This document shows positions 364-36,733 of a stretch of DNA of 64,000 bases, piece by piece (the first letter of the stretch is position 1; every line of letters begins with the position of its first letter). Below the pieces are notes generated by a model. It was not told where the DNA came from. It saw nothing but the letters and a program-made list of their open reading frames with translations, and did not search any database. The position numbers and the translations under genes are program-made. Origin of the DNA: a virus; the IMG/VR virus record IMGVR_UViG_3300028388_004772, positions 32,001 through 96,000 of that record; one strand, 5' to 3'.

Positions 364-2073
364 CTATGATACTGCGGTATTATTAAGTATATATGTTGAA
401 CCAGCATTGGAACCTTCATCATCCTCATCTGGAGCTCCTACTACGACAGTATCTCCATCAACTGAAACTGAGTATCCAAATACATCATTTGCTTGTAAAT
501 CATCTGGGGAGAACGCGGTCTCTTCCGTTACATATATTGTGTTACCATCAAACTCATAAGTAAACACATAGATTTTACCACCGTAAATACCATCCTCTGT
601 ATGATAAGGGGCTCCTACTACAAATCTGTTATTCGCTGTGTCTAGTTCAACCCAATGGCCAAAACGAGCGCTAGCTGTGTAATCTGATGCGACAACGCGG
701 GCCCTAAAAGAAAAGGCGCCACCTGACCCATCCCATATATAAACAGCCCCACAATCAAACACACCAGATTCATCGTCTCTAGGAGCCCCGGCTATTATCA
801 ACCATCTATTAGCATCAGGCCGTTTATCTAAATCAACAGAGTATCCTAACCAAGCGGAAGTTGACGGAGTACTTGATGTAAGTTTTACTCGCTCGGTAAA
901 GGTACTACCTGATCGAGTATAAACATAGACTGCACCTGCGTCAACAGTTGATCCAGCTTCATCTTTGTAAGCTCCCACAGCCGCATATCCAGTTCCATGA
1001 TGTCCAACAGCATGGCCAAACTCTGTGATGGATTTGTTAATTCTGTCCTGTTCGCTCCAGTTGGTTACAGACCGTTTATAAACATAAGCTGAGTTATTAC
1101 CTGCCGCTCCCACAATTAACCATTCACCATTTAAATCTATACTTGCGCGCCCTGCCGTTGTGCCGCCAAAACTTATACCAGTGCTCGGGCTTCCCTCTGA
1201 AGGTACAACTTTTGCCTGTTGAGACCAGGTAGATCCGGATCTATAAAAAATGTAAGCGGCGCCAGCCGTACCATGGCCAGGTGCACTGACTGCTATGTAA
1301 TCACCATCAATTCCGACACCGGTTCCAAAATAATCGTCACTTACAATATCATTTGGAAGTAGTTTAGTCTGCTGAGACCAGTTTCCATTACCATCTCTGG
1401 CAAAAACATAAGCTGCACCAGATCTGTTTCCGTTTTCGTCCCGCTCGGGGGCCCCAATAACCATATAGTCCCCTGATACTGAGACAGAACGTCCAAATAC
1501 ATCACCGGCTAGAATATCACTTCCTTGAATCTTATCTGTTTGAAGCCATCCAAATGATAAAGTAAACGTTTGAGCTGCAGATGACGCGATATTAATACCG
1601 TCAGTTGCTGTGAATGTAATTGTTCCTGATGTAGTAGTTGCTGAGTCCACGCCAAACGGTGTAATAGTAAATACAGACGAATCCTGACTAAGCGAAGCAA
1701 GACTATTGAAGTTACTGTCTGGTGTTGCTGAATATGTAATTAGTCTATCATCAGAATCAGCTGCAGTAATAGTAATCGTTGTAAGATTTCCTTCCGTTGA
1801 CAGCTCAAAAGGAGAAGTACCTCCGGCACTATCTTGTACTGATGTTATCGTCGGAGATCTGTTGATCATCACAACACTGAACCATCCACTTCCATCATAA
1901 ATGTAATATCGATTATTCGAATTTACAAATGCTTCTTGACCATTAGAAACACCTACTCGAGGCAGTTCACCTATCGAATCATATATTGGTACTTGGGCCT
2001 CAGGTGTTGTCCCAGCATTTGCCTGAGAAACAGTAATGATATTATTTTTAAAATTCGAAAAATTACCCATCAA
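364..2073 (-). CDS. FG-GAP repeat (beta-propeller) virion protein with N-terminal adaptor and cadherin/Ig-like domain
   Basis: Repeated FG.SV...GD..V.GAP..D...GAAYVF blades; N-terminal YDS..ELP...GSGWF motif shared with other genes in the window. Confidence 0.8.
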   Translation of the reverse strand: MMGNFSNFKNNIITVSQANAGTTPEAQVPIYDSIGELPRVGVSNGQEAFVNSNNRYYIYDGSGWFSVVMINRSPTITSVQDSAGGTSPFELSTEGNLTTITITAADSDDRLITYSATPDSNFNSLASLSQDSSVFTITPFGVDSATTTSGTITFTATDGINIASSAAQTFTLSFGWLQTDKIQGSDILAGDVFGRSVSVSGDYMVIGAPERDENGNRSGAAYVFARDGNGNWSQQTKLLPNDIVSDDYFGTGVGIDGDYIAVSAPGHGTAGAAYIFYRSGSTWSQQAKVVPSEGSPSTGISFGGTTAGRASIDLNGEWLIVGAAGNNSAYVYKRSVTNWSEQDRINKSITEFGHAVGHHGTGYAAVGAYKDEAGSTVDAGAVYVYTRSGSTFTERVKLTSSTPSTSAWLGYSVDLDKRPDANRWLIIAGAPRDDESGVFDCGAVYIWDGSGGAFSFRARVVASDYTASARFGHWVELDTANNRFVVGAPYHTEDGIYGGKIYVFTYEFDGNTIYVTEETAFSPDDLQANDVFGYSVSVDGDTVVVGAPDEDDEGSNAGSTYILNNTAVS

Positions 2074-5000
2074 CTATTACCAGTCACAATCCAACCTTCT
2101 GAAGCATTGTAATATACTAAATCAACAAATGCTCGATTGACATCAAGAATAAAGTCTGAATCCGATCCAAGAATCTTATCACTACTTGTAATTGTAATAT
2201 TGTTTGTCTCTGCATCTCCTGTTCCATCACCAACCTTAACCTCATCACCAAAAGATGGAGAAGATGGTAGTGTAATAGTAACAGCTGTCGTAGTATCAAC
2301 GATATATTTCTTATTGACAACTGCTGTAATATCAGTAGTTGCCTCTTGATACATTCCTGTTAGGAAGTTTGTGATGAAAGTCTCAGTACTACCAGTCGCG
2401 ACTGAAACACTGACATAGTCACCAGATACACACGCATCTTCCAACGTAACTGACAATCCATTTGTTGCTGTGTAGTCAGCCGAATCAATTAACAGAATAC
2501 CGTTTCTGAATACCTGTATTCTACCTTGGGTATATGATAGTGTTTGACTGCTCAGATCAGCTCCATCGAATGTTACTTGATCTGAATCAGCAAGGTAATT
2601 GTATGTAATTATATTCGACGATGGTGTAGCTGCTAAATTAGTAGTCGTATTGACAGACATAATGCTAAGAATATCATCTGTCTGTGCAGCTTCTGTTAGA
2701 ACAACTGATGTTCCGGTTGTTGCAGTATAGTCAGCTGAGTCTGCCAAGAATAGACCATTAAGATAAACAGCAATATTTCCTGGATTATAGGTCAGTGTTG
2801 CTCCTCGATTATCCCCACCAGAGAATACAGTTTGTCCATTTGCTGCTGTAAAGTCAAACGTATTAACAACACCATTCTGATTATCAAGGATACCAAGAAC
2901 ACCGGCTGAATCCAGTCCGCCACCAGCACCACCGCCACCACTAATTGTAATAGTCTTAGTAGCCCCTGTACCTGACGCTGTTACCCCATCGCCAACAAAG
3001 TTCAGAGTTGTTCCAGCTGTTGCAAGCGGAGTACCTTCATCCTGAATTGTGACACCGCTACCAGCAGTCGTTTGCCTTGCCTGTACGTATGCTGAGTCAA
3101 CTGTTGCATTAATAATAGTTACAACTGTTGCTGAATCAGTACCACCTGATCCTCCACTAACTGTAGACTGTCTGGCTTGAATGTAATCTGAATCGATCAA
3201 CGAAATCACTTCGCCAGAGTTTAGATACCCCTGTGTTGCAATCAAACTAATCGCTTCGCCAGAGTCTAACGCGTCTGTTAGATACCCTTGTGTTGCAATC
3301 AAGCTAATTACTTCAGCTGAATCGAGGAATGAGGTGTCGCTTAATAATACAATATTTCCAACCATTCCAGCATGAATAGTACACTGATACACTAGTGTTT
3401 CAGGTGCATTCATTGGAACATTGAAGATCAACTCTCCATTGTTTTGAGCATTATTAGTAACGCCTGTGCTATATGCTGATCCGCCGTCACTAACTCTAAT
3501 CTCAAACGGATGCGATACAGCATCAATGTTAAACTTATAGGTGAGACCTCTTTGAAGATAGAGAGTTGGATTATCAGCTGAGTCAAATCCATCACCAGTA
3601 AATCTATATGCAGATGCTCCGCTATTAACTACATTGAATACTGCCTCAGGTGGTCTACGCGCCTCAATATAGTCAGAATCAATAAGTGATATTGTATTGG
3701 CTGAATCGAATGTCGTATATCCAGCATCGTTAGTTAAATCACTAACTGACTTATTGTTGAAGTCGGAGTCAAATCCAACGTACGTACCTTCGAAGGCACC
3801 TGCTTGGACTATAGCAAGTTCAAACGATGCATCAGCAGTATTGATTGTTCCTTCTATTTCAGGATCATATTTGTTAAAGAACTTAAACTTCTGGTCAGTT
3901 GCATCTCTGAATACACCAGCGTGAGTGTATGGTGCATTAGGAAGATTGTAATTACCAACAAATCCAAGATCGACATTTACAGGAGCCGCATCACCGGTCC
4001 AACGATCACCGCTATCATGACCCGTAACAGCCTCAAAATCAAATGTGATGTTGTACCGAAGTGGAATATTTGTATTTCCGTCAGTACCAAGTTGCCATGT
4101 TGTCTGACCGCCCGCCGAATCAAATCCTAAACCAGCTGAATCAGTGCCCAGATACCATTTAATTGTATCTCCACCAGCACCTTCTGAATCTGTTGCAACA
4201 ATCTCGACATTGTATGTGAGGTTGCTGTCACCTTCATAATAATCTTTAAATAAACCATCATCAAGGCCTGTTCCAACATGGCTAGTAATAATTGTATCAC
4301 CGGCACCAAGATATACAAAGTTGTCAGTAACACGAAGATTAGCAACTTGAGTTACTGTTTCAGCACCGAGAAGGTTAAAGTTTCCTTCGACAGTTAAATC
4401 ACCACCAATTCTAGCTTCGCCAGTAGTTCGAATTACCTCAAAAACATGATCAATAATATTAATGAAAACCGTGCCCTCGGCTGAATCAATAACCAGAGCA
4501 TAGCCTAAATCTACAGCAAAGTTAGGATATGTCGGAGCAGTTTTCTGGAATGTACCTGCAACTGTTCCTACATGAAATCTTTCACCAGAAGTAAGACCAG
4601 TCGTATTGATACCATTGACAACTCCCTTTGTTGTTACATATCCTATTTCATTATTACCTATTTCATGAGTAGCAAGGCCTATTGCGTGAACCTTTGGCTC
4701 ATCTGTAGCATCAGCAAGATCAATTGTAGGAATACCATTGTCCTGTCCTGTTATGTAAACAGGAGCTCCATTTGCAATAGCTGTACCTGTATTATTCTTT
4801 ACTCTTAGCCATTCTTCTTGGCCGACCTGTAGAGTAACATCTTGCTCATTATTGTAAACAGCAAGTGCCCCATTGGCTGAATCATAGAATATTCTGCCTT
4901 CGCGATGATCTGGCTCAGAACCAGTAAAGTCAATAAAGTTGTGGTTTTTTGTTTCTCTTAATTGAACATATGCTGAGTCAATAAAATCAATTACATTGGC

Positions 5001-6290
5001 TGAATCCAGTACATTAGGTCTTCCAGTAAGTGAACTATATGCAAAATCTTGTCTTGCTTGGACATACGCCGAATTAACTAAACCAATGGTACTTGTAGAA
5101 TCAAAGGTCGTGTATCCATAAGACGTGATAATACTATTGACGTTTGTGGAATCCAGTACGTTAGGAGCACCAGTTAAACTTGAGTATGCAAAGTCCTGAG
5201 CAGTTTGTCTTTGTTGTACATAAGCCGAATCCACAAGTGATGTGACATCGGCTGTAATAATCGACGATACATTAGATGAATCCAGTACATTAGGTGCACC
5301 AGTTAAACTTGAGTAGGCAAAGTCCTGAGCTGTTTGTCTTTGTTGTACATATGCTGAGTCTACTAAGTTTACAACACCTGTAGAGTCAATCTTATCCCCT
5401 ATGAAATTAATTAAGGTGGCATAAGCTGAATCATCATCATTTAAGGCAGCAGCAATCTCATTTAAAGTATTCAGAGCATCAGGTGCCCCATCAATGAGAT
5501 TGTTAATTTGAGTTGTTACATATGTTTGTGTAGCATATGAAGTTAAAGCCGAATCAACAATAATAGTAACAGCAGCTGAATCTGCAAACCCCAAAGAAGG
5601 TTTATTGGATAATAGATTATAATCTAATCCAGTAGCATGGAGTTGGACGTAAGCTGAATCAACAACACTCTGGATTCTTGCAGAGTCACCACCGAAAGTA
5701 GTGACAATTAATGTATCCCCAGAGTCTGCTGCTTCAGTAAGAACAACTGTGGATCCATTTGTAGCTGTATAGTCCTCGCCGTTTAAAAGTATAATACCGT
5801 TAAGAGTGACTAATAAAGCACCTGGAACATAGGCAGCCGAAAAGTCAGTTTGACTTGCACTTGCCGTAAAGGATGTTTCGGTAATTCCAACACGACCTAA
5901 TGGGTCAATTAATCCAGCAACGTATCCGGAGTCGACTACTTCATTAATAATCTGAGTTGTTACAGCAGAGTCTGTGGATAAGTTTGCCGTGGAAATTGAT
6001 AATACATCAGCTGAATCAAGGACGTTTGGCGTGTCTGTTAAACTATTGTAACTTAACCCGAAAGCATGCAATTGCACATAATCAGAGTCAATTAATGCTG
6101 TGGTATCGATACCATCAATTAGATTCTGTACTAATGCAGAATCGATAAAAGACTTGACTTGATTCGAGGAATTCTTATAGTAAATTTTACCATCAGCAAA
6201 GTTGATGGCAATTTCACCATATTCTAGATCGCTAGTACTAGGAATCCGTCCAGCAACACTAGACTTCTTTAGTTTAATGTTAGTAGCCAT
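2070..6290 (-). CDS. Long tail fibre / virion structural protein, 1406 aa
   Basis: N-terminal IKLKKSS..G..P...L.YGE.AIN..DGK fibre motif; GAPDALNTLNEIAAAL motif; internal repeats; cupredoxin-like LVYQCTIHAGMVG segment; repeated V..NG..L....DYTAT.G.SVVL domains. Confidence 0.75.
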   Translation of the reverse strand: MATNIKLKKSSVAGRIPSTSDLEYGEIAINFADGKIYYKNSSNQVKSFIDSALVQNLIDGIDTTALIDSDYVQLHAFGLSYNSLTDTPNVLDSADVLSISTANLSTDSAVTTQIINEVVDSGYVAGLIDPLGRVGITETSFTASASQTDFSAAYVPGALLVTLNGIILLNGEDYTATNGSTVVLTEAADSGDTLIVTTFGGDSARIQSVVDSAYVQLHATGLDYNLLSNKPSLGFADSAAVTIIVDSALTSYATQTYVTTQINNLIDGAPDALNTLNEIAAALNDDDSAYATLINFIGDKIDSTGVVNLVDSAYVQQRQTAQDFAYSSLTGAPNVLDSSNVSSIITADVTSLVDSAYVQQRQTAQDFAYSSLTGAPNVLDSTNVNSIITSYGYTTFDSTSTIGLVNSAYVQARQDFAYSSLTGRPNVLDSANVIDFIDSAYVQLRETKNHNFIDFTGSEPDHREGRIFYDSANGALAVYNNEQDVTLQVGQEEWLRVKNNTGTAIANGAPVYITGQDNGIPTIDLADATDEPKVHAIGLATHEIGNNEIGYVTTKGVVNGINTTGLTSGERFHVGTVAGTFQKTAPTYPNFAVDLGYALVIDSAEGTVFINIIDHVFEVIRTTGEARIGGDLTVEGNFNLLGAETVTQVANLRVTDNFVYLGAGDTIITSHVGTGLDDGLFKDYYEGDSNLTYNVEIVATDSEGAGGDTIKWYLGTDSAGLGFDSAGGQTTWQLGTDGNTNIPLRYNITFDFEAVTGHDSGDRWTGDAAPVNVDLGFVGNYNLPNAPYTHAGVFRDATDQKFKFFNKYDPEIEGTINTADASFELAIVQAGAFEGTYVGFDSDFNNKSVSDLTNDAGYTTFDSANTISLIDSDYIEARRPPEAVFNVVNSGASAYRFTGDGFDSADNPTLYLQRGLTYKFNIDAVSHPFEIRVSDGGSAYSTGVTNNAQNNGELIFNVPMNAPETLVYQCTIHAGMVGNIVLLSDTSFLDSAEVISLIATQGYLTDALDSGEAISLIATQGYLNSGEVISLIDSDYIQARQSTVSGGSGGTDSATVVTIINATVDSAYVQARQTTAGSGVTIQDEGTPLATAGTTLNFVGDGVTASGTGATKTITISGGGGAGGGLDSAGVLGILDNQNGVVNTFDFTAANGQTVFSGGDNRGATLTYNPGNIAVYLNGLFLADSADYTATTGTSVVLTEAAQTDDILSIMSVNTTTNLAATPSSNIITYNYLADSDQVTFDGADLSSQTLSYTQGRIQVFRNGILLIDSADYTATNGLSVTLEDACVSGDYVSVSVATGSTETFITNFLTGMYQEATTDITAVVNKKYIVDTTTAVTITLPSSPSFGDEVKVGDGTGDAETNNITITSSDKILGSDSDFILDVNRAFVDLVYYNASEGWIVTGNS
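5001..5365 (-). repeat. Internal tandem repeat, ~129-nt period (VDSAYVQQRQTAQDFAYSSLTGAPNVLDS x2 plus a shorter third copy)
   Basis: Near-identical DNA at ~5149-5234 and ~5278-5363; degenerate copy at ~5001-5075. Confidence 0.85.
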
Positions 6291-6347: not shown

Positions 6348-8090
6348 TTAGTAAGTTCCACCATCCACTGTTTCAATGGATACTAATCCACCTGATACAT
6401 TGAAGCTTGCAGAATCAAATGATGCTGTACCACGCTGCGCAGTTGTAGCAGCTACCGCATTAAATGTAATCTGACCATCTGAATCAGCAGTTGTTGTAAT
6501 ACCTGAGGTTGCATTACCAGCAAATGTAATACCTTCACCAACCGACAATGCACTTGCACCAGATCCTGTAGTGATTGTAATATCATTAGCTACAACATCA
6601 CCATTTGTTACAGTGAAGTTAGTAGCATTAAAGCTTGCAATACCTTTGTTTGTATCAGATGCATCCTCACCTGCAATGGTATATGTTCCAGCACTATCAG
6701 TGATGTCAATACCTTCACCAGCAACTAATGCAGCTCCTAAATCTGAATCAAATCCCTGATAATCCCCAACTAGTGTATTACCTTGTAAGTTTGTCGCGTA
6801 GATATTACCGACATTCAGATCTGATAAAGTAAAGCCAGTACCATTTCTGTCAATTACGTTAGTTGGTAAAGAAGAATCAAGGGCTGAATCAATTAGTCCA
6901 TTAAAAAGATAATATTGTGAGTTCGATGCATCCCGGAAGAAACCAGTATGTGCCTTTGTAGCTCCACCATCAGGAGAGTAGTGAGCCACAAAACCAATAT
7001 CCACCACATCGGAAGTTTCATTACTATCGGCAAGATGAAGTAATGGATCCGTTACTGAGTAGGTGATGGTGTTAACAGTAGTAGTTGTACCATTAACAGT
7101 CAAGTCTCCGTCAACAGTAAGGTCTGTACCTACAAGTACAGATCCAGTTGTTGTGATTGAATCAAACGTCACCCCAGCATCTGTTGCGACCGACTGACCG
7201 ATTGCAACTTGACCATCAGTAATTGTAACACCAGTACCATTAGAGAAGTGTGCTCTGACTTCTGCTGGAGAAGGTCCAGTGTAAGTAAATTGTCCACTAG
7301 CAGAATCATATGTAAATGATCCGTCTCCACCAGCATCTACGACACTAAGATTATTACGAGCAAGAGCAATTGTACCATTAGAATCAATCGCTTGGTTAAC
7401 TGCAATAGTAGATACAGCCGTAACAACACCAGTGCTAGTAACTGTAACAACAGGAATTTCAACTGCTGAACCAAATGTACCAACGTTGGTATTGACAGAG
7501 TCAAGTGCATATGAAACAGATGTACCAGATGCAGTTGCTGTTAAACCTACACCCGTAAATGTAAGATCTGAGTTCGCAAGTGATACTGATCCTGATCCAG
7601 CATCACCAGCTGTAAGTAATGTAATTCCAGAACCACCAGTAATTCCGTCAACATAGCCTTTGGTTGCTGCATCTGTTGCTGACTGAGGAGCTCCTAGATT
7701 AACAATTAATGCACTGTTGACGTCAACACTACCAGTACCATTTGGATCAAGTGAAATATCACCATTAGCATTGGTAGAGCTAATTGTATTACCGTCAACT
7801 GTAATATTGTCGACTAGTAACTCGTTTAGCTTCTTACTTCCATCAACAATTAGCGCGCTTGATGCAGTAGTAGTGCCAGGAGTATGATCCAATAGACCAG
7901 TATAATATTCACCACCAATTTGTACAACCGAGGTGGCATTTCCTGACCCATCATCGCCCTTACCAAAATAAAGTCGATCACCGCCATTAGCATCAGTACC
8001 AGCGCCATATGAATAGGCTAGTTCGCCTGATTTAAGCGAACCAGGTGCGCTGGTGCCGGTTGATCGCTTAATTTTTATAATTGACGACAT
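6348..8090 (-). CDS. Tail fibre-like structural protein, 580 aa
   Basis: N-terminal IKIKRS.G..AP..L..GELAYS fibre motif; DAATKGYVD motif; G/T/S/D-rich; C-terminal DGGTY. Confidence 0.7.
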
Positions 8091-8469: not shown

Positions 8470-9402
8470 TTATATACCGCTTATCAATCTCTTGGCTTTG
8501 ACAGAAACATTAAATGTACTAGGCGTAAATAGTAAACTTACTTGATCATTATCGGTATCGATAACAGCATCAAAAGAACCCAAGTCTTGTCCTGTAAATA
8601 ATTTTGCAAATTCTTGTATATACACTTCTGAGCTGTCATGGATTAATAGGATTTCAGCTGCACCAAATTGGTTACTTGCATTTTGTTCCATTTGGATAAA
8701 ATACTTAGCGGAGCGTTGGGTGGCCGTCGAGAATGTATCAAGAACTTCTTGGGTAATCCCACCAAAATCTTGATCAACAACACTACTAAGATTCTCAGCG
8801 GCCAGACCTCCAGCACCACCAGTGATCGTACCAACTTCTTGTTCCACAATACCAAAGGCATTGACCTGTTGAATACTTAACGAGCCACCCTCATCCTTCA
8901 GTGCCAAACTACCAATGTAAAGGGTGTTTCCTGTTAACCATAGATCTTTCCATCTATTGGTTGGACTACCAAGAGATCTAACAACATCAGCGTCTGGGAT
9001 CAGGTCTGTATCAATTGAATCGAAATTTTGTCGAGTCTTGATATAGTCAGAATCGATAATGTCACTAATTGGAAATTCAGCTGATGTAATAACTCGACCA
9101 AAATCATCTACCTCAATTAGGGGTATAGTAGTCGTACCACCAAAGGTACCGGCTGATCCGAGATTAGGTAAATTGATCGACAGTGTGTTTGTGGCGCTAT
9201 CGTACGTTTCGTTAATCTCACCACCGACAGCTAATCTAGAACTCGTGTACTTTCCTGTATTAGAGTCATATACAAAAATGTCAAGATGCTGTCTATCAGT
9301 GGCATCAAAATCTGTAATCGAAGTGATGCTCTGCTGTGCTCCTGATACACTTCTAACAGGAGTACCGACTACAATTTTTTTAACAATAGTTTTGGCTGTC
9401 AT
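8470..9402 (-). CDS. Virion structural protein (fibre-like)
   Basis: LIPD......LGSPTNRWKDLWL motif and C-terminal LDTF.....RSAKY.IQ domain, both typical of T4-like marine phage virion proteins. Confidence 0.6.
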   Translation of the reverse strand: MTAKTIVKKIVVGTPVRSVSGAQQSITSITDFDATDRQHLDIFVYDSNTGKYTSSRLAVGGEINETYDSATNTLSINLPNLGSAGTFGGTTTIPLIEVDDFGRVITSAEFPISDIIDSDYIKTRQNFDSIDTDLIPDADVVRSLGSPTNRWKDLWLTGNTLYIGSLALKDEGGSLSIQQVNAFGIVEQEVGTITGGAGGLAAENLSSVVDQDFGGITQEVLDTFSTATQRSAKYFIQMEQNASNQFGAAEILLIHDSSEVYIQEFAKLFTGQDLGSFDAVIDTDNDQVSLLFTPSTFNVSVKAKRLISGI

Positions 9403-25000: not shown

Positions 25001-27302
25001 CATAAAGGGGCAATGCACCAGATGGTGTTTCTGGAAGAGAAGCTTCCGTGGATGAAATGCCCGTTGTCACTCTAACTTCACCTACACCCTCATTACCCTC
25101 GGCATCCAAAGACGATACGATTAGCTGATCTCTTCTTGGAAGATAATACTCAGCATCAAGTGTTACAATATCAGTAGATTGAGGAATATTATTAACATTA
25201 GCTTCAGGGTAAGCACCTGAAGAGTTTTGAATTGATCTAAAGTCTAGTACATCTCTTAAGCTAACATCACCAAAGCTCGGTATACTGGTATAATCTACCG
25301 CTCCGTTGTAAGAGTTGATAGCAAATAAATCCCCAGCACCGTGAGTAAAGTAATCGAACTGAACAAGAATGTCTCCAGTTGGAATAGAGGTTCCAGCCTT
25401 TTCAACAAGTCTTCCTAGTCCATAGTAGTTCGCTCTTTGACCATTATCCGCAATAAAGTTATTGGATAGATCGGCTCCATTGGAATCAGCTTGAGTGATA
25501 CTTGTTACTCTGTAAATATCAGCAACACCAAGATCGATATATCTAAGACCATTTCCATCTGAATCAGCTTCTGAAGGCCAAGCCTTTGTTAAACTATTTC
25601 CTGTTGATAAAGATTTTGTACGAATAACAGGTGTATCAACTTGGATATAAGCAATCAATTCGTAATTCGAAGAGACATCGAGACCCGAAATGTCGACTTG
25701 AGAGCCAACAGGAGATCCAGTAAGTGTGAATGTTGCATTCGTGTCACTTACCGCTTCACCTTCTTTAGTGATAATCCAATCCCCCGTGTTAGTGAATGTA
25801 TCACCACCACCAGCTGAAAGTGTATAGGAACTTCCTGTAGTCGGGAAGGCATAACGCTTTCTTGTTGTTAATACAATATCAGATACACCATCAATTACAG
25901 GGCGTGATCTTGGAAGCGGGAACAACATTGTGTTGATAGAGCTTTGCTTGAGATTAGTAATCCCAGCTTCAACTACTGTATTAACATAATCTGTTGTACC
26001 ATTACCAAAACTTCTGACGTTACGGAATGATTGACCCGAATTCATTTGAATATCAAACAGATAGAATCTTAGGTTACCACCATCCTCATCAATTCCTCTG
26101 ACTCTAGCAGTACCAATACTGTCCCCAGTCCATCCTTTAGCACTCATCAAGTCAACTTGCTCAAGAGTGTTAATATTTGGAAGACCCGCACAACTATCCG
26201 GATTTCCTAATACATAATTACCATATTGAACAACGATTGGTTCGTTTTCTACAGTTTCTGTATCTCTTGCCTTTGGAACGGTAATTTTTGTAGGAGCAAT
26301 ATCTAAACGATAACCATCTACATATGCAATACCACTTGAAACATCCAATGTTAAGTTAGAGTCGTTTAGATCGTCAAACTTCGCTCGGAACGCTTTAACA
26401 ACATAATCACCCGACTCTTCTTTTGTTCTTCGAGCAAGAGCCTTATTAATCTGATTATAGTTATCATCTCCACCAATCTCTTTTGTGATCAATCCATTTG
26501 TTACTTTGGCCACAAGTACGAAGTTCTGGTCAGAGTCAACTTCACTTCGCGTTGTAAGAATTAAACGAATACGGTATCTGTCTGCACCTGGGGCTGCAAT
26601 ATTTGGTTCCGATCCTTGATTGTCATACAAACGATTGTCATCATTCGCCGTGACAACTTCTTCAACAATCCTAAAACCAATATCATCGGTGGGTGTGGAA
26701 CTGTATTTGTCTATGAAAGTTGATTGAGGAGCAGCATAGATAAAATGACCTTGTGCAAAGAATTCACCTTCCCCAACAGATGCAAGTGTTCCTCTACCTG
26801 TAGCGCTGGCATTAGCTGCTTTAAGTGATGCCAATCCATCAGACGTGAAGATAGCTCCATTCTGTACTCGAATTGGATCAGCGGTTGCTGTGCCGGCAGT
26901 TGTGTCTGTATATCTAACATATAAAGTTGCTGGATCTGTAGCAGTCGCAGCTTCTACACGAATAATCTTAAACTTAATCGCAGCATTTGGAGCACTTACT
27001 GTATACTCTGCCCCAACAAGAGCTGAAGTATCTGCTGGCAGAGGAAATGTAACCGTATCAAGTTTAATAAATTCAAACCGGTTGTTAACCGTTACTCCAC
27101 CTGGTGTGACTGTAGCACCTTCAGTAAAGATGTTTCTACCAAACCGCGCAATTTCTTCCTGAATAATCGTTTGCATCTGAGTAAGTTCTCTTGCCTGAAG
27201 AGCTCTACCAGAATTAAACAGAATACGATGGAAGTTATCACTGTCGCGATAATCATCCTTGTATGTTGAAGAAAATGTGGTATCTTTAACCGTTGTTGCC
27301 AT
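22053..27302 (-). CDS. Large baseplate/virion structural protein (VrlC/DUF4815-like), 1749 aa
   Basis: Y.DD......FHRILF..GRALQARELTQMQT, APGADR, RYTMKDIG.LEKRI, KSGFFADNF, DPVAQSF, DLRAIALA; directly after gp8. Confidence 0.85.
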   Translation of the reverse strand: MATTVKDTTFSSTYKDDYRDSDNFHRILFNSGRALQARELTQMQTIIQEEIARFGRNIFTEGATVTPGGVTVNNRFEFIKLDTVTFPLPADTSALVGAEYTVSAPNAAIKFKIIRVEAATATDPATLYVRYTDTTAGTATADPIRVQNGAIFTSDGLASLKAANASATGRGTLASVGEGEFFAQGHFIYAAPQSTFIDKYSSTPTDDIGFRIVEEVVTANDDNRLYDNQGSEPNIAAPGADRYRIRLILTTRSEVDSDQNFVLVAKVTNGLITKEIGGDDNYNQINKALARRTKEESGDYVVKAFRAKFDDLNDSNLTLDVSSGIAYVDGYRLDIAPTKITVPKARDTETVENEPIVVQYGNYVLGNPDSCAGLPNINTLEQVDLMSAKGWTGDSIGTARVRGIDEDGGNLRFYLFDIQMNSGQSFRNVRSFGNGTTDYVNTVVEAGITNLKQSSINTMLFPLPRSRPVIDGVSDIVLTTRKRYAFPTTGSSYTLSAGGGDTFTNTGDWIITKEGEAVSDTNATFTLTGSPVGSQVDISGLDVSSNYELIAYIQVDTPVIRTKSLSTGNSLTKAWPSEADSDGNGLRYIDLGVADIYRVTSITQADSNGADLSNNFIADNGQRANYYGLGRLVEKAGTSIPTGDILVQFDYFTHGAGDLFAINSYNGAVDYTSIPSFGDVSLRDVLDFRSIQNSSGAYPEANVNNIPQSTDIVTLDAEYYLPRRDQLIVSSLDAEGNEGVGEVRVTTGISSTEASLPETPSGALPLYDITLPPYTLSDSDVNLSFINNRRYTMKDIGSLEKRINKLADVTSLSLLELNTSTLSVLDSNGLQRTKSGFFADNFKDFVFSDVDNVSYRAALDPSAKVITPAIYYGNVRLFFDSDGVSQTTNKTGDLVTLPYTETQFSYQDLCNEAINVNPFEVIINTGTLQLSPASDDWIEQAFLPDVLIDGGVKKRNVGTRTVVQRTFGGWFGIAVALVIAAKTGGFGLLGGGTAGGAATGVGAASTGFSLSTTALGQLMAGNYLTAASLAAASSATAAAVNALIDDQPSVSIASNEAVVRDDIIIEQVGNRVIETFLIPYMRSKKVYFKAQGLKPNTEHFAFFNGVSVADWVREESFVRYSSTTEDYGNIYQRATEHPEGKSRLISDAEGKIEGSFFIPSTNAIKFRTGSKILKLLDITADNDDNATSLCQDIFTSTGVLEVRERTLKVTREIDVQTIVVKKKSIFCFWDPVAQSFFVSQTENPSGIFVTSVDVFFRTKAPTGGQPVQVQIRGVENGTPLAYPLPGAVKYLSPTEVSIPADLEDLESVRAAPTTFTFDEPIYLAPGQEYAIVVAAETTDYTVYVAKTYDFVLGSTDARVSKQPTLGSLYRSQNGTTWTPDQNRDLMFRINRAEFSSSGDAYLTNAQPPLYLLGSDPILTDSGSTTIRVFHEGHGFVKNDTVALYGLDSGSTYAGIKGASMLGDRTIINTDWTGYTFAADSAATGSIRTGGTNVKSTQQFMFNEYFTTVQTLTPNNTGISGSIKLTSGASWGTDRNEATNSAYSVASSFTPIIINEVNGTQAPKLIPNSKNQVADAATIKLTLSTSDTKVSPILDLQRASMTFIENSIDKQDSSNTSGFNVPISIVDETDPYNGSSASKHITTVATLAEEAVGIKLFFAAYRPSAGNFKVYYRTSTDAETIRDTSWQLASATTTVPSDEVLVFREYEYLIGGEGGQLPAFTSFQIKIVMESTSTSYIPVLKDLRAIALAV

Positions 27303-27312
27303 TTTTAAAACC

Positions 27313-28671
27313 TTAAATTGTAATAACTACTTTGATGTCTTCTGTCTGAAGAGCATCGCGCACAATTCTTGCTCTATTTTCAATATACAATACCTCACCA
27401 GAGAAAGGATTGAAAGAAGTAGAGAGACCTGCACTATCAATTATACCTGATCCAGAACCATCACTTTCTTCAAGTGTCTCACCATTCTGGAACGATTTGA
27501 ATCCTGTATTTTCATTCTGATGATAGTAAATATAATCACTATCTATCTCATCAATAAATGCACCAGCTCCAGATGTAGCCCCTCTGATAAATTTATCAGC
27601 TGTAAAGGAACTCGCTGCAGCGGTCATTCTATGATACTTTAATCCACGAGCTGTGAGAGAGGTCAACAATGTGTCACTATCAGGTAATGTAATATTACGC
27701 ATCACTGTAATTTGTCTAAAATCATTACCCAGAATAAATGCACCAGATTCAGAACCATCAGGCTTTGCGTTTAACATGATTGTTGATGCTTTAAGATCAT
27801 CTCTAATATCGGCACCAATACCATCCAAAGGACCAATAATTGGTCTCGCTGTTGCACCAGTTCCTCCACCACCTGAAATAACAATATCGGCGTGATCATA
27901 ACCCGATCCAAGACCTGCGGACTCATTATTCATTTCAATCTTAACGACAGCACCACCAGAAATTGTTGCTGTAGCTGCAGCATTTGAACCATTTCCATTG
28001 ATTGTTACTGTAGGAGCTGAAGTGTAACCAGAACCACCACTTGTCAGAGTAGCTCCAAGAATCTGGCCAGGAACTGCTGCTTCTTTAACTAATGCTTGGT
28101 CTCTTTCTAAACCAGTGTAAGCCCCTGAAGAGTCATCTAAAAACTGAACAGGAAGATAATTGGCTGATAAGAACGAGTTTGCTCTGGCTGCTGAAATCTG
28201 AAACAGATATTTCCATCTATACCCATCTGAAGTTTCGAATGCTTGTGTCTGACTAACACCGGCTGTTGAGTAACTAGGCAGAACTGTTGATGGAACCGAT
28301 TGTCCTAAGGCATTTTTACCCTGTTGTAAACAAATATAAACGTCATTATTTTCTGTTAACACGTAGTAAGGATTTGTAGGAATTCCTACAACATTATCAT
28401 TATATCCTGTGTAGGTTGTACCAGATGTCCAATTATATCTTGGGACAACAAAACTTGAACTGGCTACTTTTTTAACAGATTGAATATTATCCCTAGCTTC
28501 CCTCTCAGATCGAATTGTTCTCAAAGGTGAAGTTGGAGTATCTGTCTCATTATACTCATCAGACTTTCCAATACCAATGTAGTATTCATTAGTATCAGAA
28601 GAGCTCGAAATTTCAGTTAATAATAGATTCGTTAAAATTCTCTTTAGTGAATCTGTTACAATTGCAGCCAT
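27313..28671 (-). CDS. gp8: Baseplate wedge subunit gp8
   Basis: VVPRYNWTSG..Y, YYVLT...VYICL, DGYRWKYLF, SGEVLYIENR...QTEDIKVVI. Confidence 0.88.
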   Translation of the reverse strand: MAAIVTDSLKRILTNLLLTEISSSSDTNEYYIGIGKSDEYNETDTPTSPLRTIRSEREARDNIQSVKKVASSSFVVPRYNWTSGTTYTGYNDNVVGIPTNPYYVLTENNDVYICLQQGKNALGQSVPSTVLPSYSTAGVSQTQAFETSDGYRWKYLFQISAARANSFLSANYLPVQFLDDSSGAYTGLERDQALVKEAAVPGQILGATLTSGGSGYTSAPTVTINGNGSNAAATATISGGAVVKIEMNNESAGLGSGYDHADIVISGGGGTGATARPIIGPLDGIGADIRDDLKASTIMLNAKPDGSESGAFILGNDFRQITVMRNITLPDSDTLLTSLTARGLKYHRMTAAASSFTADKFIRGATSGAGAFIDEIDSDYIYYHQNENTGFKSFQNGETLEESDGSGSGIIDSAGLSTSFNPFSGEVLYIENRARIVRDALQTEDIKVVITI

Positions 28672-29529: not shown

Positions 29530-30489
29530 TCAAATTGCCGAGTCACTTAGGTATCTTGTGAACATTGTGTTGTCCATTGTCTCGGTACTCAATGACATAT
29601 CTGGTCTGATTGTAACATCACTATCATCAAACTTGAAGCTGTTTGGTGATAACAATTCACTAATATCCTGATAGAAACTATCCAGTTGTGTAGAAGAGAT
29701 ATCTTCGTACGTACTGAGGATTTGAGATAGATCGATTCGCACATCGTCTCCTTGTGAGTCGTACAATCCTGTAAGCTGAGTGAATCCAGTGATAGGCGTA
29801 GCCGCTGGTGCAATATCTGCTGTAAGAACTCTTGTGTTCTGAGCAGAATCTAAAGGATCTTCTGAATTTGGCATACTATCAAACCCGAGATCAACATTAC
29901 CTTCGAGTTGAGCTTGTCCTGCAAAATAGAATCCGGCCGGATGAACAAACCGTTTGTATAATTCTTCATAATCAGAGACAGAAATACCAGACTTAATCAA
30001 AATAGAAAATGTTTGGTATAATGTGTCACTAATAATGAACTTTAATGATTCAGCTCCAATCTCAGATTGGCCAACAATGAACAATTGATCTTTTGGATAT
30101 TCTACTTCTACTTCACTATTAAAAAATGCTCTGAAAAACCCTTCAACTGATACCACAGACCCCTTGGATCTATAAAAACTTGACAATAGTTTTGTCATCA
30201 ATCTAGGTTGATCAAAGAAAGAGGCGACTTGCAGTCCGTTGCCGATTTCACTAATCAGGGCATCCAGATACTGTTCCTCTGTGACACTTATGTCACGAAC
30301 AGAAAATAGACTGTTAATTTCTGTGCCAAAGGATCCTGTAGTACTACTGTCCAAGTAATCGTAATATTTTTCTAGAAATGTAACAAGTGTGGGATACTCA
30401 CTGAGATAAAACTCAGGAAGAACTTCCCTAACCTTTCTGTTAGCAAAGTTAATATCCCTTCTATTGTTGTCCTCTAGAATATGTGTCAT
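29530..30489 (-). CDS. Baseplate wedge protein (short gp7-like)
   Basis: LPEF...EYP.LV.FLEKYY.YL, FYRSKGS......FFR.FF, VHPAGF; follows gp6. Confidence 0.7.
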   Translation of the reverse strand: MTHILEDNNRRDINFANRKVREVLPEFYLSEYPTLVTFLEKYYDYLDSSTTGSFGTEINSLFSVRDISVTEEQYLDALISEIGNGLQVASFFDQPRLMTKLLSSFYRSKGSVVSVEGFFRAFFNSEVEVEYPKDQLFIVGQSEIGAESLKFIISDTLYQTFSILIKSGISVSDYEELYKRFVHPAGFYFAGQAQLEGNVDLGFDSMPNSEDPLDSAQNTRVLTADIAPAATPITGFTQLTGLYDSQGDDVRIDLSQILSTYEDISSTQLDSFYQDISELLSPNSFKFDDSDVTIRPDMSLSTETMDNTMFTRYLSDSAI

Positions 30490-32786: not shown

Positions 32787-35462
32787 TTATTGTGCCGAAT
32801 CGGCAGCAAGATAAACATATGCGGACCCTGCATCACTTTCACCATTTATATTATCAAGATATGCTCCAATAACAGCCCTGCTATTGCTTAAACCAACACT
32901 CCAACCAAAAATATCATTTGCTTCAGGATTAGGATTCAAAATTTCTGCTGCTTGCGACCAACTATCATTAGACCTAGTGAACACATACGCTGCACCACCG
33001 ACATTACGTGAATATCCTCCGGTAATAATTGTGTCACCTTCTATATCAAGACTACCCCCAAGATTTAAAAAACCTGGATAAGCTCCATCTTGTATTAATT
33101 TGGTTTGTTGTGTCCATGTAGAGCCAGATCGAGTAAAAACATAAACCGCTCCGTTGTTTGAACCATTTGCATCATCATTAGGTGCACCAATTGCAATCGT
33201 ATTACTATTACTGTCAACCGCAACACTAGAACCAAATCGATCGTTGCTTTGTCTGTCTCCGGCCGGAGCAGTAAGAACTGTATTTAAAGACCAACTACCA
33301 TTACTTCTTGTAAATACATGAGCATTACCGCTAGCGTATACACCATTTGCGTCTTTATAAGGAGATCCGACGACAATTGTGTCACCGGATATATCAACTC
33401 CATTTACATTTTCACCGAAACGCTCTTGGGCCTGCGGACTGGTTGGGGTCAGTTTTTGTTGTTGTGTCCAAGTACTTCCCGATCTCGTAAACACATATGC
33501 TGCACCTACGTTATTGGATCCACTAATATCATGTAGAGGGGCACTGACAACAATCGTGTCACTGTCTATTGCTACAGATGTTCCAAAATAATCCGAAATT
33601 CTGCCACCTGAGGCTTCTATAGACTGCTGTTTAGTCCAAGTACTTCCTACCCTTGTATATATGTGAGCGTTACCTGTTCCAGAAATACTATTACTGACAT
33701 CTATACTATCTCCTAGTCTTGAACCAGCAACAATTGTATCTCCATCTATAGCAACAGATGATCCCAGTCGATCGGCAGATCCACTAAAACCTTCTGTAAT
33801 TTTTTGTTCTAATTCAAAAGGAGGGAAATCGCCAGTAGAATCTAGTATAAAGTTATAAAAATTTGATAACGAAATTATTCCAGATGTAGGGGCCGGAGAT
33901 AAAATTGATGAACCAATGAGTGCACTATTAAGACGATATACAAAAATAGCTCCTTCGGACGAATAAACATCATCTTCGCGGGGAGCTCCAACCGCAATTG
34001 TATCACTGTCTATTGCTACACTATAACCATAATAATCTGCATATTCCGGTGTTGGATGTGTCAAAGTACCTTCTAGATGAACCAAATTCCAATCAGCAAT
34101 AGGAAAACCAGATTCACTGACACTATCAGAGTAATATTCCGACAATGATATCGGATTAGTTCCTCCTAGGTAATCTTGTACCTCGGACAAACTGATCGGC
34201 GGTTGATACCATCCAAGGGTATTCCATATATCTCCAGCAAAGGAATCGACAATATGTGAGAAGCTACCATTACTATTATAAAAACTCAATCCATAGCTAT
34301 TATTGGTGGTTACTATGAGTCCATTTTCTGCAGCCGCAATGTTGTCTCCAAAAGGAGCAGAATACCCGGACCTTGGGTTTGTAACATTAGGACTATTAAT
34401 AATTATCTCATTAGACCCGTCAGAATCATAAATGTATATACCCCCGATCTCATCCGGGTATCCTTTATACGGAGCTCCCACTATTAACTTGTTATTTTCG
34501 TAGATGATTTCTTGGCCAAAATCATCCCAATCACCCGGATAGCTATTATCACTTGGAAAAATTGGACTAATAGAATCCAGGTGGTCACCAGTAGCTTTAT
34601 CAAATATGAATACAGCACCAGCTCCCTGATTTGCAAATGTCCGAGCAGCCCCAGCATATACCTTGCTTGAATTCATGGCCACCAATCGAACGTGGCCATC
34701 CCCAGTATTAGTCTGTCCGGATCCTCCAAAAATTACAGCACTTCCCATATCAGGAGTAGTAGGTCTAGAGATTGTCCGGGGGTTAGTCAATCCAGAATCT
34801 AGCAGTCGTATTCGACGAAGCTCATTAACTGGATCATTTTCTGAGACAGCAATTGTATTACCTGAGACATATACATTATGACCAAGTTCATCTCCAGAAT
34901 CTCCTTCGTATACGTATTGATAATCTCGTTTATTATTTGGATTTGCTGCTATATTAGCAAGACTGTATTGATATACCCTTCCTTTAGGAACTATACCTGC
35001 ATATCCCGTACCACTGCCTGGTGCACCTACTACTAATACGTCACCAGACACAGATACCGCATGACCGAATCTTGCATTAGGTGAATATTGACCGCCGTCA
35101 TAATACGAATTCGGGTATGTCGCTAAATGAGCATCTGTCATTTCTCTACGGGCTATTAGTTCAAAATTGATAGTATCATATATCCAAACAGCACCAGCAA
35201 AATAGTCATTGCCGAAACCACCTCGATCGGATAAGTCGAAAAACAGCGGATGACCAACGACAATATAATCATCATTAAAATCTACTGATACACCATAACG
35301 ATTATCGATATCCAAGTAATCCTCATCATAACCAGTGGGTACTGTCAGCAGAGCTATTCTTTCCCCTGTTTCAGAATTTACAACAGTTACTTCACCGTTA
35401 CTGTTTACGGTATTATTTCTTGCGTTGCCACCAATAATAAATCTAAATTTAGGAAGAGCCAT
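32787..35462 (-). CDS. FG-GAP repeat protein with two propeller regions (putative adhesin), 891 aa
   Basis: Many FG.SVAI.GDTIV.GAP...GAAYVFTRSG..W blades; internal ISLSEV...GGTNPISLSEYY motif. Confidence 0.8.
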   Translation of the reverse strand: MALPKFRFIIGGNARNNTVNSNGEVTVVNSETGERIALLTVPTGYDEDYLDIDNRYGVSVDFNDDYIVVGHPLFFDLSDRGGFGNDYFAGAVWIYDTINFELIARREMTDAHLATYPNSYYDGGQYSPNARFGHAVSVSGDVLVVGAPGSGTGYAGIVPKGRVYQYSLANIAANPNNKRDYQYVYEGDSGDELGHNVYVSGNTIAVSENDPVNELRRIRLLDSGLTNPRTISRPTTPDMGSAVIFGGSGQTNTGDGHVRLVAMNSSKVYAGAARTFANQGAGAVFIFDKATGDHLDSISPIFPSDNSYPGDWDDFGQEIIYENNKLIVGAPYKGYPDEIGGIYIYDSDGSNEIIINSPNVTNPRSGYSAPFGDNIAAAENGLIVTTNNSYGLSFYNSNGSFSHIVDSFAGDIWNTLGWYQPPISLSEVQDYLGGTNPISLSEYYSDSVSESGFPIADWNLVHLEGTLTHPTPEYADYYGYSVAIDSDTIAVGAPREDDVYSSEGAIFVYRLNSALIGSSILSPAPTSGIISLSNFYNFILDSTGDFPPFELEQKITEGFSGSADRLGSSVAIDGDTIVAGSRLGDSIDVSNSISGTGNAHIYTRVGSTWTKQQSIEASGGRISDYFGTSVAIDSDTIVVSAPLHDISGSNNVGAAYVFTRSGSTWTQQQKLTPTSPQAQERFGENVNGVDISGDTIVVGSPYKDANGVYASGNAHVFTRSNGSWSLNTVLTAPAGDRQSNDRFGSSVAVDSNSNTIAIGAPNDDANGSNNGAVYVFTRSGSTWTQQTKLIQDGAYPGFLNLGGSLDIEGDTIITGGYSRNVGGAAYVFTRSNDSWSQAAEILNPNPEANDIFGWSVGLSNSRAVIGAYLDNINGESDAGSAYVYLAADSAQ

Positions 35463-36733
35463 TACGGAGATCCAAATGCTGTAACATCATTAACAGCAAC
35501 AATTTCACCAATAGAATCAATTGAAACCTTAGCTATATCATTGTAAGAGAATGTTAATTTATTACTCACCACTGATATTTTCCAATCGCCAATAGTTAAT
35601 GAGGTAGCATCCCCAAATGCACTATCAATCAATGCACCCGCACGCGCTGGGGTATAATAAAGATTATTGCCTTCGGATAAATCTGTAGTTGACTTCTGAC
35701 TTAGGTCTAAGTTTGCTCCTGTCTGCAGATTCACACGAGCATCAGCTCTATCATTTGTATAGTATAGTCTACTACCCTCAGTTATATCAGAGGTTGTAGA
35801 GGGGATTGTTGGTGCACCTGTTAACGAGCTGTATGCAAAATCTTGAGGAGTTTCTCGAGCTCTCACGTATGTGTTATTAACAACAGCAGAAATAAGATCA
35901 ATTACGGCATTCGAGTCGGTACCCACAACACCTAAGGACGTAACATAATCAGCACCTATAATCGATTGAACATCATTAGAATCTAGTAAGTACGGTTTAC
36001 CCGAAATAGAGTTCCAAGAAAAGTTTGGAGCTGTGGATGGACTACCGATATAGAATCCACTAAACCGTGCGCCAGACCTGATAAAAGTTGATGTGTCGCC
36101 TGACACATCATATTCAATTTGAATAGAATCATTAGCTTCAAAATATTCTACTCCCGCGATAGTGTGGGTAGTGAACCCTCCTCCCTGACCGTCCTCTAAG
36201 GTTCTGTAGCTGAAATTAGCATTACCACCAATAAGCTGTTGGTTAACCTTTAGTCGTATCTCAGACCACGCTGCTCCCTCGATATTATCGGAAGTGACCA
36301 TACTATTAAGTTGATAGTATCCACTAACGGGTATAACGTATGAGAACCCTGCTGAATCCCAACCTTGACCCACGTCAAAGATTACATTATCAAACGGAAT
36401 TATTACCGCATTCGTATAATCAGCACTAGACATATTTGTCTCGAGTTGCACACTAAACGCAACAGTTGCTTCTTGTACTATACTATCCGCTATCCACTCG
36501 TTGCCGTTGTATTTTAAGAACATGCCAACGCCAGCAGAATCCACTGAATCTGAAACATTAGATAAAGCACCAAGAGTTGATCCAACAACACCATCCCCAA
36601 ACCTAAGATTGCCGTTCTCATCAATAACGATAACCTGATTTTCAGTACCAGTCTCTGTAGGAAGAGTATACAGAGTATTCCCATTGTCATCAATGTAGAT
36701 TACTGTACTTCCAGACTGTCTTAAATCTGCCAT
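35462..36733 (-). CDS. Fibre protein with C1q/TNF-like domain
   Basis: VAFSV...IPFDNV.FD.G.G.D....YVIPVSGYYQ...FSGFYI; TTSDITEGSRLYYT repeats; ends NDVTAFGSP. Confidence 0.7.
   Translation of the reverse strand: MADLRQSGSTVIYIDDNGNTLYTLPTETGTENQVIVIDENGNLRFGDGVVGSTLGALSNVSDSVDSAGVGMFLKYNGNEWIADSIVQEATVAFSVQLETNMSSADYTNAVIIPFDNVIFDVGQGWDSAGFSYVIPVSGYYQLNSMVTSDNIEGAAWSEIRLKVNQQLIGGNANFSYRTLEDGQGGGFTTHTIAGVEYFEANDSIQIEYDVSGDTSTFIRSGARFSGFYIGSPSTAPNFSWNSISGKPYLLDSNDVQSIIGADYVTSLGVVGTDSNAVIDLISAVVNNTYVRARETPQDFAYSSLTGAPTIPSTTSDITEGSRLYYTNDRADARVNLQTGANLDLSQKSTTDLSEGNNLYYTPARAGALIDSAFGDATSLTIGDWKISVVSNKLTFSYNDIAKVSIDSIGEIVAVNDVTAFGSP

Follow-up and report, generated by a model that had tools for sequence, protein, structure and literature searches.

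An Asp-Ser motif in the distal tail proteins of a marine T4-like phage clade and its co-occurrence with a glycosyltransferase core

Why should a phage have tail fibres and an outer baseplate that are crowded with the dipeptide Asp-Ser (DS), and is the serine a site of modification? The question is raised by a stretch of 64,000 nucleotides, referred to as the window, that covers bases 32001-96000 of the 141-kb IMG/VR contig IMGVR_UViG_3300028388_004772 (CheckV completeness 84%). The window contains a T4-like baseplate and tail module with homologues of gp5, 6, 8, 9/10, 25, 48 and 53, together with gp32 and a DUF4815/VrlC-like protein of 1749 amino acids (aa). Its source is an uncultured marine T4-like phage; the closest cultured phage is Phage C48C1 (gp6 47% identical), followed by Methylophilales phage Melnitz, Pelagibacter phage HTVC008M and then the cyanomyoviruses, and a search of the phage collection gave no nucleotide-level match to the window. 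An earlier note on this DNA had proposed that DS is an acceptor site for the phage's own glycosyltransferases (GTs). We find that hydrophobic-Asp-Ser-(Ala/Asp/Gly/Asn) is a clade-specific motif kept by selection on the distal tail, i.e. on the fibres and on the gp7/8/9-like wedge, FG-GAP and VrlC-like proteins. As to its function, we favour, with somewhat less than even confidence, a modification tag on the Ser that is read by the GT core of the clade, the modification probably being glycosylation.

Enrichment of Asp-Ser in the distal tail proteins

The expected number of DS dipeptides was determined for 60 translated open reading frames (ORFs) with 2000 shuffles each, and the values for the individual proteins are listed in Table 1. 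The excess is individually overwhelming in the 1406-aa fibre only, while the other proteins have z values of 2-3 each. If 13 other fibre and outer-baseplate proteins are pooled without the 1406-aa fibre, DS is found 92 times vs 53.2 expected (z 5.5), and it ranks first among the 400 dipeptides in the 1406-aa fibre as well as in the 13 pooled proteins. In the pool the inverse dipeptide SD is flat (z 0.3), DG and DA are flat too, and DT is slightly depleted (36 vs 51 expected). The hand counts of the earlier note (40, 11, 9, 7, 5 and 5) are all exact on recount, and so are its zeros for gp32, the epimerase ('SqdB') and gp48 and its single DS in each of the gp5-like and gp6 proteins; the recount excludes gp54, as no ORF was identified as gp54. 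The shuffling also places DS, and not SD, above what composition predicts. Three further DS-rich fibre-like proteins are located just upstream of the window (genome 26537-30687).

The non-structural proteins contain 33 DS vs 52 expected. Since the observed/expected (O/E) ratio of DS is also about 0.7 over all ORFs of phages CRP-6 and HTVC105P, we regard this depletion as ordinary background. The inner baseplate and tail-end proteins (30486-43117, i.e. gp6, gp25, the gp5-like protein, gp53, gp48 and neighbours) have, together with gp32 (45029-45919), 2 DS vs 15 expected. In the same inner-baseplate set the clade shows a raised frequency of the dipeptide ES. The tail genes include those of two large proteins with FG-GAP repeats (364-2073 and 32787-35462; Pfam E 3e-66 and 1e-84), and the counterpart of the second one in the relative G020 has 20 DS vs 7.9 expected.

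The signal sits at the protein level, since the Ser codons within DS follow overall usage (TCN share 73% vs 70% overall) and GANTC is not depleted. A nucleotide-level cause, such as GANTC sites arising from GAY-TCN or a bias in Ser codons, is thereby ruled out, and recent DNA tandem repeats were discarded as well, since Tandem Repeats Finder detected none in 2070-9402.

The residues around the dipeptide are not random either. In the 13 other, non-shaft outer proteins the position before DS (-1) is hydrophobic in 62% of the sites vs 39% in the background (p 5e-6), the position after it (+1) is small in 73% vs 53% (p 6e-5), and Gly is common at +2 (24%). No such context is seen around SD, DT, DG or DA in the outer proteins, so the hydrophobic-D-S-small context which the earlier note had described is statistically significant in the non-shaft proteins. 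It is also not generic to DS in phage proteins: in the large ORFs of seven related genomes that carry a GT25 family glycosyltransferase, both features are present in 54% of the DS sites vs 19% expected, whereas in four GT25-less relatives the values are 24% vs 17%. A general property of phage fibres was rejected too, as the fibres of C48C1, CRP-6, HTVC105P, CRP-2, DSL-LC02, Melnitz, HTVC008M and S-8S55 are not DS-rich. The DS enrichment is thus confirmed as real, protein-level and confined to the distal tail proteins. In the literature that was searched, a DS motif in phage fibres was not described.

At first sight, the motif resembles the general O-glycosylation system of Bacteroidota, a periplasmic system that modifies Ser or Thr in the sequon D-(S/T)-(A/I/L/V/M/T) (PMC8729774). 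In both cases Asp stands right before the candidate Ser, Ala is the commonest residue at +1 and there are many sites per protein; in the 1406-aa fibre Ala occupies +1 in 24 of the 40 sites, which fits the published sequon. The phage could then have a Bacteroidota host and borrow its enzyme, but we find this hardly credible. Firstly, Thr is unused, both in the fibre and in the pool, and D, G, N and S are frequent at +1, DSD being the second commonest tripeptide here. Secondly, the N-terminus of the fibre has no signal-peptide-like hydrophobic core and virion assembly is cytoplasmic. Thirdly, a GGAG, GAGG or AGGA site is found 4-16 nt upstream of one third of the genes (20/60 vs 5% background), and the nearest cultured relatives infect Proteobacteria (SAR11, OM43, rhizobia) or cyanobacteria. 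The mechanisms would differ as well: in Bacteroidota the glycan is transferred en bloc by an O-oligosaccharyltransferase that accepts Thr, while here we see cytoplasmic virion proteins, soluble GT-A candidates and no use of Thr. We consider the likeness as a sequence analogy only, as neither the use of both Ser and Thr nor the export of the substrates is found here.

The fibre shaft repeat and the sites outside it

The DS sites fall into two layers, the first of which is the shaft of the 1406-aa fibre. The sites of this fibre read hydrophobic-D-S-A/D-x-V/I: the -1 residue is I, L, V, F or A in 30 of the 40 sites, +4 is V or I in 22, the wider pattern hydrophobic-DS-small is present in 34 and a strict helix-cap pattern in 19. 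A search with residues 1-460 gave at least 694 environmental proteins. The best 120 homologues are all DS-rich (6625 DS vs 1857 expected, median z 11), and their consensus is a repeat of about 43 aa, LIDSAYVQLRQ-DYAYSSLTGxPNVLDSAxV-...-GLDSAxV, which is not covered by Pfam. If the alignment is anchored on the downstream residues of x-x-A-Y-V/I-Q only (864 instances), the pair at x-x is DS in 90% of the cases, with D in 99% at the first position and Ser in 91%, Ala in 6.6% and Thr in 0.9% at the second; after P-N-hydrophobic-hydrophobic it is DS in 278 of 278 instances.

Such a degree of conservation raises the question whether the motif is purely structural. DS would then be the N-cap/N1 pair of a helix start with a hydrophobic staple (hydrophobic N', Asp as N-cap, Val at N4) in the shaft module, and a strand-end turn elsewhere; the Ser would be unmodified, the GTs would act elsewhere, and the excess would come from repeated use and exchange of the module among the fibrous proteins of one lineage. 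Hydrophobic residues at -1 and +4 from Asp have the spacing of a helix N-cap with a hydrophobic staple. The capping box and the staple are said to have been described by Aurora and Rose in 1998 and by Munoz, Blanco and Serrano in 1995, and the 19 strict sites agree with them in the hydrophobic N', the Asp N-cap, the small N1/N2 and the hydrophobic N4. The periodic consensus, the DS-richness of all of the best 120 homologues and the hydrophobic-DS-small pattern of most fibre sites also speak for this explanation, and so do the nearly invariant Asp and the exchange of Ser with Ala and not with Thr, an alternation that suggests a constraint on size, as judged from the alignments. In an AlphaFold2 model of residues 1-460 a helix starts within -1 to +2 of the Asp at 8 of the 19 DS sites vs a baseline of 14% (p 0.003), although the model is of low confidence, its mean predicted local distance difference test score (pLDDT) being 47; for the gp7-like protein the score is 38. 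The only match in a PDB sequence search with the fibre was a coiled-coil segment of 6v8i gp68. The shaft layer is most simply a structural repeat of short units that begin with DS, where a small helix is probably capped at its N-terminal end. On the other hand, generic caps tolerate S, T, N and D at the N-cap and many residues at N1, whereas here D and S are nearly fixed, and DS is also found outside helical repeats.

It is these sites that form the second layer. In the globular domain of the 1406-aa fibre (aa 456-845) Asp precedes 8 of the 12 serines, where 1.0 is expected, while the homologous domain of CRP-6 (37% identity), with 35 Ser and 30 Asp, lacks DS altogether and has unrelated residues opposite these sites; the DS sites of the domain were gained in loops. 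Among the baseplate proteins, positions 331 and 412 of gp8 are DS in 17 of 22 orthologues and position 40 of the gp9-like protein in 16 of 16, while many other DS columns of gp8, gp7-like and gp9-like proteins turn over, commonly exchanging with DT, DN, DA, NS and ES. The VrlC-like, gp8 and gp7-like proteins together have 17 DS columns that at least three GT25-bearing lineages share and that none of the four outgroup-type genomes has. The same test found 3 columns each for DT and DA, DS being the commonest dipeptide, and ten inner or other families gave 2 such DS columns. In the VrlC-like protein alone, the GT25-bearing clade shares at least 7 DS columns that neither C48C1 nor the outgroups have.

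The DS signal is more than a repeat artefact. For the structural explanation it can be added that several baseplate DS columns hold their position across 40-95% identity, and that DS is not avoided genome-wide. However, it leaves unexplained the Asp-preceded serines where the CRP-6 homologue has none, the absence of the sequence context in GT25-less relatives, the point-substitution gains of DS in the VrlC, gp8 and gp7-like orthologues, and a distribution that matches those of GT25a and of w59912, two proteins of the sugar gene region. Weighing the two sides, we consider a purely structural role rather unlikely.

The 1406-aa fibre has matches of a different kind as well. Residues 459-839 are 37% identical to the tail fibre of the Roseobacter phage CRP-6, and the gp10-like segment (aa ~790-985) matches the baseplate-fibre connectors of cyanophages, so the protein is a mosaic across phage morphotypes and hosts.

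The glycosyltransferase core and its distribution

The phage does carry a GT cluster of its own, as the earlier note had stated; its sugar genes are at 50630-60691. Pfam recognises two GT25 domains (E 5e-11 and 4e-16) and a GT8-like one (E 2e-4), i.e. both family domains of the pair that extends the outer core of lipooligosaccharide (LOS) or lipopolysaccharide (LPS), GT25 of the Lic2A/LgtB type and GT8 of the LgtC/RfaJ type. In the relatives a conserved core, consisting of the genes at 50630 and 51243, GT25a, GT25b and, at the far end, the gene at 59912, flanks a cassette of variable content. This core is found in about 50 IMG/VR contigs, where it is syntenic and 45-65% identical. The Pfam-silent proteins at 51243-51950 and 59912-60691 have GT8 or Nucleotid_trans domains in 10-13% of their language-model neighbours, which we take as leads only; for w59912 the PDB sequence search was empty as well. 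The GT25 family includes protein glycosyltransferases, and the best PDB matches of the GT25 proteins are to procollagen galactosyltransferase 1, although these are weak (E 0.01).

A 621-aa protein of the Synechococcus phage S-8S55 (record 29319-31184) has an N-terminal GT25 domain (E 6.5e-27) fused to a 2-oxoglutarate (2OG)-Fe(II) oxygenase, and PHROG 61 has the same layout; this cyanophage shows no DS excess. The fusion recalls the logic of collagen hydroxylases and glycosyltransferases, a hint that proteins may be among the substrates of phage GT25 enzymes.

The T4-type late-promoter-like sequence TATAAATA that stands at the head of the GT block (Table 1) is also found at 8453, 9811, 29522, 32775, 40663, 41183 and 63658, and 8 of the 9 copies in the window are in short gaps directly before genes. 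The genes behind it are nearly all structural, and the site at 61222 precedes the gene of a small membrane protein. Such a placement fits T4-type late promoters, but 9 copies in all vs 5.7 expected is not in itself a significant number. No terminator-like site was found on the strand of the GT block, and in the GT region the scans for sigma-70 promoters and for terminators remained at chance level. An apparent gap of 175 bp (60692-60866, minus strand) between the gene of a 110-aa membrane protein and the GT8-like gene encodes a 53-aa ORF (MWVLLVMLL...) whose start overlaps the preceding stop (TAAATG).

Are the DS-rich fibres and the GT core found in the same genomes? DS-rich shaft fibres are present in 10 of 10 genomes that show both the fibre module and the GT25 region (G000, G005, G008, G020, G025, G030, G031, G040, G046 and G047, two pairs of which are near-duplicates). 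Searches with hidden Markov models show that GT25 is absent from C48C1, Melnitz, HTVC008M and S-PM2, and none of the three GT25-less relatives in which DS was computed (C48C1, Melnitz and HTVC008M) has a shaft-type DS fibre; in these relatives the DS-rich fibres go with the conserved GT25/GT8-like core, which favours the earlier note. Out of 142 ORFs of the phage, just three occur in each of the three near-complete DS-rich genomes and are missing from these three cultured phages, namely those of GT25a, w59912 and one fibre protein. DS-shaft fibres were not found in small GT-less phages, as every contig with such a fibre seems to derive from a large T4-like genome. In a tree of six concatenated core proteins C48C1 is sister to (G024,(G000,G020)), inside the DS/GT25 clade, with 100% support in the Shimodaira-Hasegawa-like approximate likelihood ratio test (SH-aLRT), so it counts as one joint absence of both traits. 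The clade-conserved DS columns have other residues in C48C1, which retains two shaft-type motifs, with DA in one and DD in the other. The DA-rich 1266-aa fibre of C48C1 was ruled out as a Ser-to-Ala version of the shaft, since this protein belongs to a different type, an Ala-rich coiled coil.

Two observations on the sugar genes of C48C1 can be mentioned here. An NDP-sugar epimerase and a UDP-glucose dehydrogenase adjoin a DNA polymerase and a Dam-type methylase (record 30-37 kb; 10147-17226), and a 266-aa protein with no Pfam match has a weak likeness to the N-terminus of GT25b.

The window has a second group of potential modifying enzymes: six radical-SAM enzymes, three 2OG-Fe(II) oxygenases and a JmjC/cupin protein are encoded among the fibre genes (9830-20948), with no GT cluster there. 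In the complete 220-kb genome G040 this group is in the same position (~179-188 kb) with 28-70% identity (43-70% in 7 of 11 genes). It was rejected as the reader of DS, because it is absent from the DS-rich genomes G020 (94% identical in the baseplate), G005 and G008.

The joint distribution also has to be seen in the light of another possibility, i.e. that DS serves some other function on the tail surface (a Ca/Mg site that stiffens the fibres in seawater, another modification or a glycan-binding surface) and that the GT core modifies the LOS/LPS of the host, the two co-varying as a host-recognition package. The motif is clade-specific and surface-like, with frequent Gly at +2 and with gains in loops, GT25 and GT8 are LOS-type families, and C48C1 has had its whole fibre set replaced, as a change of host would predict. 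The published view of such phage GTs is also that they modify the O-chain of the host (PMC7029224). However, a metal-binding signature such as DxDxDG was not seen, the radical-SAM/2OG cluster does not qualify as the reader, and the conserved, syntenic core of four to five GT genes does not resemble the LPS genes reported from these phages, which are hypervariable. We therefore regard this possibility as distinctly unlikely.

Table 1. Positions of the features in the window, with DS counts (observed vs expected) for the proteins concerned
Feature	Position	Strand	Remark
1406-aa tail fibre	2070..6290	-	DS 40 vs 10.5 expected, z 10.2; SD 12 (z 0.5), DT 7
1406-aa fibre, N-terminal anchor	aa 1-47
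1406-aa fibre, DS-rich shaft 1	aa 48-460		DS 19 vs 4.7
1406-aa fibre, central globular domain	aa 461-840		DS 7 vs 0.8
1406-aa fibre, shaft 2 and gp10-like domain	aa 841-1135		DS 10 vs 2.4
1406-aa fibre, C-terminal part			DS 4 vs 2.4
580-aa fibre protein	6348..8090	-	DS 11 vs 5.4
310-aa fibre/baseplate-connector-like protein	8470..9402	-	DS 5 vs 2.7; one shaft-type motif, IIDSDYIKTRQ
1749-aa DUF4815 (VrlC-like) baseplate protein	22053..27302	-	DS 14 vs 11 overall
gp8-like baseplate wedge protein	27313..28671	-	DS 5 vs 3.1
gp9/gp10-like connector, 268 aa	28688..29494	-	DS 5 vs 1.9
319-aa gp7-like wedge protein	29530..30489	-	DS 7 vs 3.4; 1 in the C48C1 orthologue
891-aa FG-GAP repeat protein	32787..35462	-	DS 13 vs 7.8
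423-aa fibre-like protein (weak C1q-like match)	35462..36733	-	DS 9 vs 3.9
Conserved syntenic core, candidate reader enzymes	50630..53189	-
Core member, 206-aa protein without assigned family	50630-51250	-
Core member, 235-aa GT-A-like protein	51243-51950	-	From language-model neighbours; lead only
Core member, GT25a	51871-52512	-	Pfam
Core member, GT25b	52509-53189	-	Pfam
Variable sugar cassette	53186..59915	-	Methyltransferases and others; gene content differs among relatives
Cassette, GT8-like protein	53786-54439	-
Cassette, NAD epimerase/dehydratase	54441-55586	-
Cassette, HAD plus nucleotidyltransferase	58569-59915	-
259-aa protein w59912	59912..60691	-	57-74% identical across the clade; GT8-like by language-model neighbours; no Pfam match
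T4-type late-promoter-like TATAAATA	61222..61229	-	Heads a packed co-directional block: w60867, 53-aa ORF, w59912 to w50630
454-aa structural-like protein adjoining the GT block	62265..63629	-	DS 9 vs 3.6

A proposed modification tag and its relation to known systems

We prefer the reading of DS as a modification tag because it covers both layers of sites and the distribution of the genes. In the shaft, DS starts the conserved short repeat, while the sites elsewhere are isolated and arose by point substitution. The conserved GT-A core, i.e. GT25a, GT25b and the GT8-like proteins of 235 and 259 aa, would recognise the tagged Ser in the cytoplasm during the late phase of infection and would build a short O-linked glycan on it; the enzymes of the variable cassette (methyltransferases, epimerase, nucleotidyltransferase) would then diversify the outer sugars. 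The data show the enrichment, its context, its limitation to one clade and its joint distribution with the GT core, whereas a modified Ser, a sugar as the modification and the choice of the initiating enzyme are things we infer. The full picture, in which a widespread uncultured clade of marine T4-like phages has its own sequon-directed cytoplasmic protein O-glycosylation by 4-5 small GT-A transferases and a glycan-coated distal tail whose outer sugars vary with the cassette, is offered tentatively and with a good deal of doubt. As regards the earlier view of DS as an acceptor for the phage's own GT cluster, the enrichment, the context and the co-occurrence with the GTs agree with it, while the modification itself goes beyond them and the shaft sites lie in a structural repeat.

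A number of points weigh against this reading. The first group concerns the fibre: roughly half to three quarters of the sites of the 1406-aa fibre are within the conserved structural repeat, the conserved shaft unit is 10-11 residues long and includes Y, V, Q and R besides the Asp, a varying shaft Ser turns into Ala rather than Thr, and both AlphaFold models are of low confidence for placing the serines. The second group concerns the enzymes. No initiating protein O-GT was recognised among them, and the combination of GT25 and GT8 is one that we take to be the LOS-extension pair of the Lic2A/LgtB plus LgtC type. GTs of such type in pelagimyophages were assigned to the modification of host O-chains (PMC7029224), and DT is nowhere enriched, though the known D-(S/T) sequon accepts Thr (PMC8729774). 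The third group concerns the distribution. On the tree roughly one gain and one loss account for the joint occurrence, the fibre set of C48C1 was replaced wholesale by other fibre types, and a phage that changes its host could exchange fibres and host-surface genes at the same time. In addition, G030 and G031 have GT25 but no DS enrichment in VrlC. Finally, a test of 36 core families showed no genome-wide avoidance of DS (O/E 0.80-1.12 in GT25-bearing vs 0.66-1.05 in GT25-less genomes). Avoidance of the sequon elsewhere had been considered since the inner-baseplate subset looked depleted (pooled 0.40 vs 0.68), but it was dropped as this test showed no difference.

It is useful to compare the features of this locus to systems in which surface proteins are glycosylated or sugar genes are linked to phage tails. 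Mycobacteriophage virions are glycosylated by phage-encoded glycosyltransferases (Freeman et al. 2023, in so far as cited in PMC12801897). The present phage is similar inasmuch as it has GT genes that would decorate its own structural proteins in the cytoplasm. The mycobacteriophage substrates are reportedly the C-terminal regions of siphovirus capsid and tail-tube proteins, with no D-S sequon, whereas here the candidates are the fibres and the outer baseplate of a T4-like myovirus, the GT families are different and the glycosylation is a predicted one. In staphylococci, SdgA and SdgB carry out the cytoplasmic O-GlcNAcylation of adhesins with Ser-Asp repeats; these enzymes belong to GT4 (GT-B fold) and their substrates contain long (SD)n tracts. 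Both cases involve Asp-flanked Ser in fibrous surface proteins, and the high rank of DSD mentioned above is in line with this. In contrast, the present phage has no enrichment of SD, its DS sites stand singly and its candidate enzymes are GT25/GT8-like; Pfam found no GT4 among the sugar genes of the window (GT25, GT8, epimerase, nucleotidyltransferase and methyltransferases only).

The closest parallel in terms of genome organisation is found in pelagimyophages and cyanomyophages, which have a hypervariable host recognition cluster extending from VrlC to the fibres and GT8-rich sugar genes (Zaragoza-Solas et al. 2020, PMC7029224). Our phage shares the marine T4-like background, the VrlC-to-fibre region and the GT8-rich sugar genes. 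That account describes no DS motif, and, unlike there, the GT core reported here is conserved and syntenic, is located outside the fibre region and co-varies with the DS-rich fibres.

If the Ser proves to be glycosylated, this would be, to our knowledge, the first sequon-defined system of virion glycosylation in T4-like phages, and this in a marine group that is abundant. It would provide a readable code for predicting sugar-coated tail surfaces, and it would give a new role to many 'LPS-type' glycosyltransferases of marine phages that are now assumed to be directed at the host. It would also suggest that fibres could alter their surface chemistry without a change in sequence. If, on the other hand, the motif is structural only, it defines a large family of fibre-shaft repeats that is absent from Pfam and useful for the annotation of fibres in metagenomes.

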